DNA of 30,262 nt from a virus. Its lineage: Duplodnaviria; Heunggongvirae; Uroviricota; Caudoviricetes. Where the stretch lies: IMG/VR virus record IMGVR_UViG_2534681935_000039, positions 1 to 30,262 of that record. One strand, given 5' to 3'. Positions 13,833-14,154 of the stretch are shown here, one piece after another. The position numbers were made by a program, and so were the translations under genes. The notes under the pieces were generated by a model. The model worked only from the letters and a program-made list of their open reading frames with translations, did no database searches and was not told where the DNA came from. Numbering within the stretch: the first letter of the stretch is position 1; every line of letters begins with the position of its first letter.

Positions 13833-14154
13833 CCAAAGAGTTCATTCCGGTTACTAACCTGACTGGCTTGTCGTTAAATTGAACAGGTGGAGTGAGCTTT
13901 TATTTTGAGCAGTACGGCGTATGGCACATGCGCCGATAGCGGTCTGGATACGTTTAAGGGGCACCCTCCCTTGCTCGGGCAAACGAACCATGTAGCCGGA
14001 ATGTGCAAGTCGAGCGGTTTTATTCCGCGCACGGGGATTCACCATCCCGGCGATTCGGTGTGACGCCTCGGAAGAGACGAGGGTACAACGATGAGAGCAT
14101 TTATGGAGCCGCGACAAAGTGTGGTGCCTTAACAGGCTAAGTGCTCTCAGCGTT

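Follow-up and report, generated by a model that had tools for sequence, protein, structure and literature searches.

Comparative sequence analysis points to a family of structured RNAs in the probable early transcripts of temperate enterobacterial phages

The stretch of DNA analysed here (the window; 30,262 nucleotides, IMG/VR record IMGVR_UViG_2534681935_000039) belongs to a phiV10/epsilon15-like temperate phage of the genus Uetakevirus. Between positions 13700 and 14450 it is 98.6% identical to phiV10 and 99.5% identical to 'phage PH444'. The interval 13833-14154, between the portal operon and the gene for an arginine transfer RNA (tRNA-Arg), contains no credible gene, as the original prediction had stated when it proposed a structured RNA there. 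Judged from comparative sequence evidence, the plus-strand segment 13911-14154 belongs to a large family of structured phage RNAs that had gone unannotated. The predicted RNA is about 245 nucleotides (nt) long in the window. Its core of about 175 nt comprises five covarying helices, one of the conserved segments being a near-invariant 18-mer, as well as an H-type pseudoknot, and a long 3' stem comes after it. The candidate RNA of the original prediction is thereby placed on the plus strand and in a large family, with a pseudoknot and a wider non-coding cassette that the prediction had missed. The parts of the core are as follows.

13911-14088, plus strand: conserved core, found with covariance model R1 (cmsearch) at 135.2 bits, E=1.6e-43, as the single match in the window
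13915-13935, plus strand: helix H1, CGGCGUAU (13915-13922), loop GGCAC, AUGCGCCG (13928-13935)
13943-13992, plus strand: helix H2, outer pairs 13943-13946 / 13989-13992, plus inner pairs
13992-14009, plus strand: near-invariant 18-mer GUAGCCGGAAUGUGCAAG (DNA form GTAGCCGGAATGTGCAAG), a junction or single-stranded segment
14009-14051, plus strand: helix H3, G14009-C14011 with G14049-C14051, enclosing a variable hairpin and H4
14034-14060, plus strand: H-type pseudoknot, H4 GGGA 14034-37 / UCCC 14045-48, loop CACC 14040-43 with GGUG 14057-60
14066-14082, plus strand: helix H6, CCUCG 14066-14070 / CGAGG 14078-14082, conserved loop GAAGAGA

The structure was derived from an alignment of 47 diverse cores, which served as the training set for the covariance model, and was evaluated on 94 held-out loci. 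Standard pairs are formed in 95.6% of the cells of the training set, and 15 pairs are changed on both sides (140 cells). None of 500 shuffles reached the observed values, and slid partners pair in 29-48% of cells. The model recovers all 94 held-out loci, with scores of 108-171 bits; there, 98.1% of cells pair and 11 of the 24 pairs are changed on both sides (233 cells). Of five measures, four were not reached by any of 500 shuffles of the held-out set; 87 of the 500 reached the fifth, the number of further standard pair types. The general marks of a structured non-coding RNA are present: compensatory substitutions go beyond the controls, in which at most 48% of slid cells pair, and G.U pairs are distributed asymmetrically between the strands. 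The RNA is assigned to the plus strand because the abundant G.U and U.G pairs would be A.C mismatches on the other strand.

The eight pairs of H1 are 97-98.5% paired, with switches between GC and AU in 22-31 sequences and one CG in locus L030. The outer pairs of H2 enclose a variable branched insert, the apical loop of which bears a conserved YCCUUG motif. Switches between CG and UA were found in H2 in 11/47 and 46/94 sequences, and longer covarying versions of the helix exist (CCACUGAU/AUCAGUGG and CCACAGCC/GGCUUGUGG). In the window, C13944 stands opposite U13991, forming a C.U mismatch (CCAUG); in phiV10 and in 46 of 47 aligned relatives, a C-G pair (CCAGG) stands at this place. H3 is 99% paired and varies between CG and UG only. 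Family members differ in the size of the variable hairpin inside it (GCGG 14014-17 / CCGC 14025-28), which measures 19-32 nt. H4 is among the best-covarying helices of the family: three to four of its four pairs change on both sides, and AU, GC, GU, CG, and UG pairs are all seen. Its strands, GGGA 14034-14037 and TCCC 14045-14048 in the DNA, are those of a hairpin singled out in the original prediction, which is real. The pairs that close the pseudoknot change from C:G to A:U in five sequences (UAACC...GGUUU; CACC:GGUG to AACC:GGUU), and 98.9% of their cells are paired. Four of the five pairs of H6 change on both sides, for example between CG and GC in 37/94 sequences. A closing helix P0, in which the 5' flank would pair with sequence downstream of H6, was considered and rejected, being weak and inconsistent outside the lambdoid subfamily.

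The 18-mer between H2 and H3 is invariant in the blast-derived sets. Its invariance is not a mere product of searching with the 18-mer itself, because the approximately 52 loci retrieved through the pseudoknot region mostly keep it, about 40 of them exactly and about 11 with one substitution. RNAalifold favours pairing of GCACAU in the H1 loop with AUGUGC in the 18-mer. Both sides are near-invariant, and the few variants comprise two wobble-compatible changes and three mismatches. The predicted pairing may be a tertiary or alternative contact.

A sensitive blastn search with 13890-14160 identified 83 phage records, each with the element in one place. Conservation is 70-99% across Uetakevirus, lambdoid and Shiga toxin (Stx) phage, P1-like, and Lastavirus genomes. 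Uetakeviruses of Escherichia, Salmonella, Klebsiella, and Enterobacter carry the element at the same place, before tRNA-Arg. Its lambdoid carriers are cdtI, mEp460, 2H10, Ayreon, Stx2c- and Stx2a-converting phages, mEp390, and BUCT708, and in the annotated lambdoids it lies 100-300 base pairs (bp) downstream of a cI-type repressor gene, on the same strand and without a tRNA. The P1-like carriers are P1, P7, D6, SJ46, and RCS47. In P1, the element lies within the C1-controlled ban operon, from 15 nt past trnI (tRNA-Ile, CAU) to about 95 nt short of ban, and 2.3 kb from the promoter Pban. One Lastavirus carries it after the lysis genes.

An exact scan with the 18-mer matched 24 genome contigs, 23 of which are true and one of which, an Oscillospiraceae contig, is a chance match rejected by the covariance model. 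The contigs come from Kosakonia, Citrobacter, Klebsiella, Kluyvera, Phytobacter, Buttiauxella, Ca. Erwinia dacicola, and others. The same scan matched at least 120 IMG/VR contigs, and the two sources together provide 116 unique cores. The lambdoid version is present in prophages of 1638 of 5426 complete Escherichia coli genomes (~30%), at 1821 chromosomal and 258 plasmid places; among the E. coli matches listed, an annotated feature almost never lies under the element. Wherever a tRNA is adjacent, it is on the strand of the element (49/49). In 29 loci it is a tRNA-Arg situated about 75 nt downstream of the core, and in 18 a tRNA-Ile(CAU) that ends about 15 nt upstream of the core. The IMG/VR contig L054 carries two cores on its minus strand, about 800 nt apart (3994-4156 and 4801-4961; 127 and 168 bits).

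These comparative data contradict the explanation that the interval is a functionless tRNA leader or decaying filler left by a second tRNA or a gene. Its position directly upstream of a tRNA and the existence of an 87-amino-acid open reading frame on the minus strand (13854-14117), the sole sizeable one in 13833-14154, speak for such an explanation. However, about 70% of the loci lack any tRNA and mostly lie right after a lambdoid cI, so the passive tRNA leader is not supported. The remnant of a second tRNA that had been suggested also found no backing: ARAGORN reported no second tRNA, and the Rfam tRNA model at E<=10 was silent upstream of 14155 (13700-14154). The alternative suggestion of a decayed gene is at odds with strong purifying selection, in which compensatory base-pair changes are conserved across unrelated phage lineages.

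A protein-coding gene or pseudogene was rejected as well. Pfam has no match for the annotated mEp460 reading frame that is equivalent to the 87-residue one, nor for the Tyrion reading frame over the element. The spacers between the conserved blocks measure 34-58 nt and 19-32 nt and fall in every residue modulo three across the homologues, so that no reading frame is conserved; their insertions and deletions break all frames, and the helices carry compensatory substitutions. Stop-codon counts alone are uninformative here, as a GC-rich stretch of 172 nt usually holds an open frame. The earlier description of the interval as GC-rich stands in moderate form only: the GC fraction is 0.49-0.57 in 320-nt windows and 0.58 in the core, compared with 0.44-0.53 nearby. 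Altogether, we regard a functionless leader or remnant as extremely improbable. What endures of the leader proposal is a structured plus-strand RNA that would be co-transcribed with the tRNA, one end of which is probably set by tRNA processing.

The following features lie between the upstream gene and the core, the palindrome being listed with its further copies elsewhere in the window.

13796-13832, plus strand: candidate promoter with operator, -35 TTGACA 13796-13801, 17-nt spacer, weak -10 TACCTT 13819-13824
13818, 16969, 16987, 22118, 22180, 24124, 24461, 24509, 25221, and 25283: copies of TTACC-N5-GGTAA
13833-13910, plus strand: variable 5' leader, about 80 nt here, conserved in close relatives only, with a hairpin at 13847-13866

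The pairing of TTGACA with an operator, noted earlier, is present in the window, where TTGACA (13796-13801) is followed by the palindrome TTACCTTTCAGGTAA (13818-13832) that overlaps the -10 region. The ten copies of TTACC-N5-GGTAA in the window compare with 0.38 expected. They lie in or near intergenic regions, some of them in what looks like the immunity region, and the sequence looks like a phage-repressor operator that is scattered as the C1 operators of P1 are. L006, L030, L033, L102, L179, and L198 also have this palindrome ahead of the RNA, and in several loci the core begins 5-15 nt past the promoter or operator. In lambdoids, the cI terminator is directly followed by a promoter with cI-type operators and then by the RNA, and a cI-like S24 repressor gene ends 120-160 nt upstream on the same strand in 44 of 105 unique loci. 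We infer from these arrangements that the shared theme is a repressor-controlled early lytic transcript.

Separate regulatory RNAs were found in two of the lambdoid carriers. Upstream of the Rha antirepressor gene of mEp460 and cdtI, C4 antisense RNA and isrK-like RNAs score above the Rfam gathering thresholds, on the minus strand at L001:706-894 and L003:277-465. Their presence indicates a P1-type RNA control of the antirepressor in these phages.

The order of elements shows a conserved non-coding cassette that has the RNA as its first module; it consists of the operator-overlapped promoter, the RNA, tRNA-Arg, a hairpin, and an intrinsic terminator. Its downstream modules in the window are listed below.

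14086-14155, plus strand: type-A 3' domain, CAACG-AU-GAGAGCA (14086-14099) / UGCUCUC-AG-CGUUG (14142-14155), hypervariable apex
14155-14231, plus strand: tRNA-Arg(UCU), found with ARAGORN and the Rfam tRNA model (73.3 bits), the sole tRNA of the window, filling the slot of the cassette
14234-14254, plus strand: trailer hairpin AUCACG-CCUAAGGAC-CGUGAU, at the same relative place in 43/104 unique loci
14275-14316, plus strand: intrinsic terminator from a terminator scan, 14-bp stem, loop with UCCCUUG, then CUUUUU

The last base of the type-A stem is G1 of tRNA-Arg. Among 115 unique loci, 68 have the stem, the window being one of them, and RNAalifold of 15 diverse type-A sequences supports it, with the covarying variants AGGUAAGAGC/GCUCUUUCC and GAGAGCGCAC/GUGCGCUC. 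Other loci continue differently after the core: with a structured type-B domain, with a run into the ribosome-binding site of ban (P1), or with a hairpin followed by a boxA-like GCUCUUUAA(C/U)AA. T-arm-like hairpins (CUGGUUCAAUUCCAG, GGUUCGAUUCC) are present in the type-A apical insert at L006:2840-2935, L008:2690-2790, and L131, and look like the 3' halves of tRNAs. A motif GGAGUG(A/C)GCUU...(G/U)UGUG occurs in the 13833-13910 leader, in L005, and in many IMG/VR Uetakevirus-like loci. It resembles the 3' strand of the type-A or L041-type 3' domain, perhaps as what is left of a preceding unit.

Past the CGUUG end of the 3' stem, the order is GUGG, the slot, CCAC, the hairpin AUCACG...CGUGAU, and the intrinsic terminator. 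The slot is occupied by a genuine tRNA-Arg in Uetakeviruses and by a tRNA-like element of 90-200 nt in tRNA-less phages (L001:3241-3372, L003:2741-2849, L010:2172-2301, L100:4572-4688, and others). This element has covarying stems; its parts are an acceptor-like stem GUGGUGA/UCACCAC, together with a D-like hairpin GCGC[AGGCUGAU]GCGC and a T-like hairpin GCCGG[AGAUCAGCA]CCGGC, the loops of which are mutually complementary (GCUGAU/AUCAGC). A 3' A-CCA is present in some copies. The element in the slot was recognised by neither ARAGORN nor Rfam.

The combination of invariant junction nucleotides and a pseudoknot with modular 3' domains (type A, type B, P1 type, L041 type) could also be explained by a ligand-sensing riboswitch or a self-processing ribozyme, the core being the aptamer or catalytic fold and the variable 3' domains the expression or processing platforms. 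Alternative pairings compatible with such a switch exist in the lambdoid subfamily, where both the 5' flank and the 3' strand CGUUG are possible partners of GCAAC, and GUUGUGG can pair with a downstream CCACAAC. However, the terminator is more than 150 nt away, past independent structured modules; the associated genes are inconsistent and point to no ligand; the closing helix P0 is supported in one subfamily only; and known ribozyme and riboswitch models gave no match. A riboswitch or ribozyme is in our view quite improbable.

A terminator with a perfect stem and a T-run follows the core in 78 of the 104 unique loci that have enough flank, and its median end is 323 nt past the start of the 18-mer. 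In 23 of the 104 loci (L012, L013, L041, L043, L104, L124, and others), the 3' trailer comprises UUGCUGUGUGUAGUCUU(U/G)GC and the terminator, which together resemble the 3' part of RprA, a small RNA of the host. When compared with Rfam RprA, the trailer at L012:2130-2249 scored 50 bits, relative to a gathering score of 70. The UUGCUGUGUGUAGUCUU(U/G)GC trailer could be a phage-borne RprA mimic.

The genes that flank the cassette in the window are listed here.

ending at 13727, minus strand: small open reading frame and portal operon, the upstream neighbour of the RNA region
14430-14810, plus strand: gene of the Phage_gp49_66 family (Pfam PF13876, E=3.4e-35)
14901-16376, minus strand: large terminase

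The tRNA cassette is an island on the plus strand within the packaging and head operon, since the small reading frame, the portal gene, and the large terminase gene sit on the minus strand. The gp49/66 gene, because it is placed behind the terminator 14275-14316, would rely on readthrough unless it has its own promoter. The terminator scan identified a second terminator-like hairpin after this gene, at 14831-14850.

The main rival to the model that we favour is a put-like role. Folding close behind the promoter, the nascent core may bind RNA polymerase, render it resistant to termination, and so act in cis as a processive antiterminator, enabling terminator readthrough into the early-left operon of N-less lambdoids and into the gp49/66-like gene here. 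The core starts 5-90 nt after repressor-controlled promoters, and a strong intrinsic terminator is positioned 150-250 nt after it in 78 of 104 unique loci. Early-left genes of annotated lambdoids lie past the terminator on the same strand; in cdtI, the first of them is not N-like and no promoter is evident between it and the terminator. The gp49/66-like gene is likewise behind a terminator, and the putL RNA of phage HK022 is a precedent for a promoter-proximal antiterminator made of RNA only (PMC9378689).

Several properties of the family are difficult to reconcile with a put-like role. There is one copy per phage and none on the PR side, whereas HK022 has both putL and putR. The core is two to three times the size of put, and the covariance model scored at best 4 bits in the early region of HK022. 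The P1 copy is 2.3 kb from Pban, and that of the Lastavirus follows the lysis genes. About 100 nt after the 18-mer, L060, L073, and L116 have an A-run and a GC hairpin and then GCUCUUUAA(C/U)AA, a match to the boxA consensus. A nut-like site can consequently lie directly downstream of the core, and in these loci a separate nut-type system is suggested. The conserved tRNA or tRNA-like processing handle would be superfluous for antitermination in cis. Taken together, a put-like antiterminator appears unlikely.

The favoured model, in which we place somewhat less than even confidence, is that of a stand-alone early-lytic RNA that is released by RNase P and acts on its own. In the lysogen, the cassette would be off, and inactivation of the phage repressor would turn it on, as suggested by the positions of the lambdoid copies behind cI-controlled PL-type promoters and of the P1 copy in the C1-controlled ban operon. 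Cleavage by RNase P at the 5' end of the tRNA (14154/14155) would free an RNA of about 245-320 nt, the 3' end of which would be protected by the long stem. Rather than being a mere tRNA leader, the freed RNA would bind a conserved host or phage component through its invariant segment and pseudoknot. A 3' end shielded by a stem, together with a segment that hardly varies, suggests that the RNA is stable and has a conserved binding partner. Stand-alone release is preferred because the 3' stem runs right up to the point at which RNase P would cut at the tRNA, because a tRNA-like handle is kept in the slot where the tRNA is absent while P1 has a tRNA on the 5' side, and because the RNA also occurs at positions that are not promoter-proximal (P1, Lastavirus).

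Several observations weigh against the release model or against the structure on which it builds. Promoter activity, RNase P release, and action in trans are all inferred, in the case of the promoter at 13796-13832 because a strict sigma-70 scan called none at 13796-13824. Placement near a promoter and upstream of a terminator fits a role in cis equally well. Complementarity of the conserved single-stranded segments to host RNAs (E. coli 16S, 23S, and 5S rRNA, rnpB, the ssrA region, 6S RNA, and three host tRNAs, with the phage tRNA-Arg included in the set) remained within the shuffled null. The shuffle controls of the covariation ignore kinship among the sequences, and folding of the single sequence is only weakly better than that of shuffles (z=-1.8).

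A more specific reading, which we consider somewhat unlikely, is that the RNA represents a new class of RNA-only effector at lytic onset, either a processive antiterminator that replaces N in many lambdoid and Stx phages and is independent of put, or a decoy or inhibitor of a conserved host machine. The machine could be RNA polymerase, a ribonuclease, or a tRNA-targeting defence nuclease. Delivery would be by a polycistronic non-coding operon made of the RNA, the tRNA or tRNA-like handle, and a terminator resembling that of a small RNA. If the effector reading is true, a major regulator has gone unrecognised in P1, phiV10, and Shiga-toxin phages and in ~30% of E. coli genomes.

The family is new but of a broadly familiar kind, that of structured non-coding phage RNAs which are linked to tRNAs and lead an early transcript. 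How widely it occurs in a model organism is surprising: no biological system is better annotated than E. coli with its temperate phages, yet the RNA has no Rfam family and no annotation in the records examined. In repressor-controlled early operons it is the first element to be transcribed, at the place where lambda has nutL and N and HK022 has putL. The RNA may explain how N-less lambdoid phages pass the first terminator; alternatively, it may be a new RNA for host takeover or against host defences. An entire overlooked non-coding operon is suggested by the linked tRNA-like element and RprA-like trailer.

Searches of the window against catalogued RNAs returned the tRNA only. This was the sole match of the whole window to Rfam 15 (4227 models) at the gathering threshold, and a scan of 13700-14450 at E<=10 gave noise of at most 16 bits, relative to gathering scores of 50-70. 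At both settings, no family was assigned to 13833-14154, and none covers the core in seven homologous loci. Literature searches with sequence strings retrieved no description of the RNA; those on phage structured RNAs and non-coding RNAs downstream of cI retrieved nothing relevant, and those on put and antiterminator RNAs retrieved only the put paper, which concerns a different RNA. A P1 transcriptome preprint does not mention the RNA, and a paper on the Uetakevirus ZX5 holds no operator or RNA data. The Pas small RNAs were considered and found to be unrelated, being located in the late region.

The closest known system in terms of position is put of HK022, which is also phage-encoded and structured, lies just after a repressor-controlled early promoter and upstream of terminators, and belongs to a lambdoid phage without N (PMC9378689). 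The put RNA is about 70 nt long, has two stems, and is present in two copies, putL and putR (PMC9378689). In contrast, the core described here is pseudoknotted, about 175 nt long and two to three times larger, has a single copy, and is also found far from promoters (P1) and next to tRNAs. Homology to put was rejected, as model R1 with filters off scored at best 4.1 bits in positions 20-32 kb of HK022. Two copies, after PL and PR, characterise put, whereas each phage record here has the element in one place and the window has a single match. Termination is suppressed by put in cis through the zinc-binding domain of the RNA polymerase beta' subunit; for the RNA family, the arrangement of promoter, RNA, terminator, and genes is the part that corresponds. 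The likeness to RprA (RF00034) is limited to the trailer of 23 of 104 related loci, and the trailer of the window lacks the motif.

GOLLD and ROOL RNAs, which are large, ornate, and phage-associated, share with this family a complex, conserved, pseudoknotted fold and a frequent location in prophages beside tRNAs, with which they are probably co-transcribed (PMC5737381). They are 580-800 nt long and known mainly from Firmicutes, rumen, and lake samples, whereas the RNA described here is 175-245 nt long and restricted to phages of Enterobacterales. The Rfam scans detected no homology to GOLLD (RF01998) or the ROOL model, and by this measure only the context of a prophage with an adjacent tRNA is shared.

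The P4 CI RNA and the P1/P7 C4 RNA are cut from longer early or immunity transcripts by RNase P and are antisense regulators of about 70-90 nt with known target sites. C4 (RF01695) has no match at the position of the RNA itself, and no target complementarity was found. In eukaryotes, the 3' end of the nuclear long non-coding RNA MALAT1 is set by RNase P at a downstream tRNA-like structure, mascRNA. The likeness to MALAT1 is architectural only and consists in a structured RNA directly before a tRNA or tRNA-like element. The architecture of the family, with a 3' stem that abuts G1 of the tRNA in the window and a tRNA-like element elsewhere, is compatible with the logic of RNase P maturation known from the CI and C4 RNAs.

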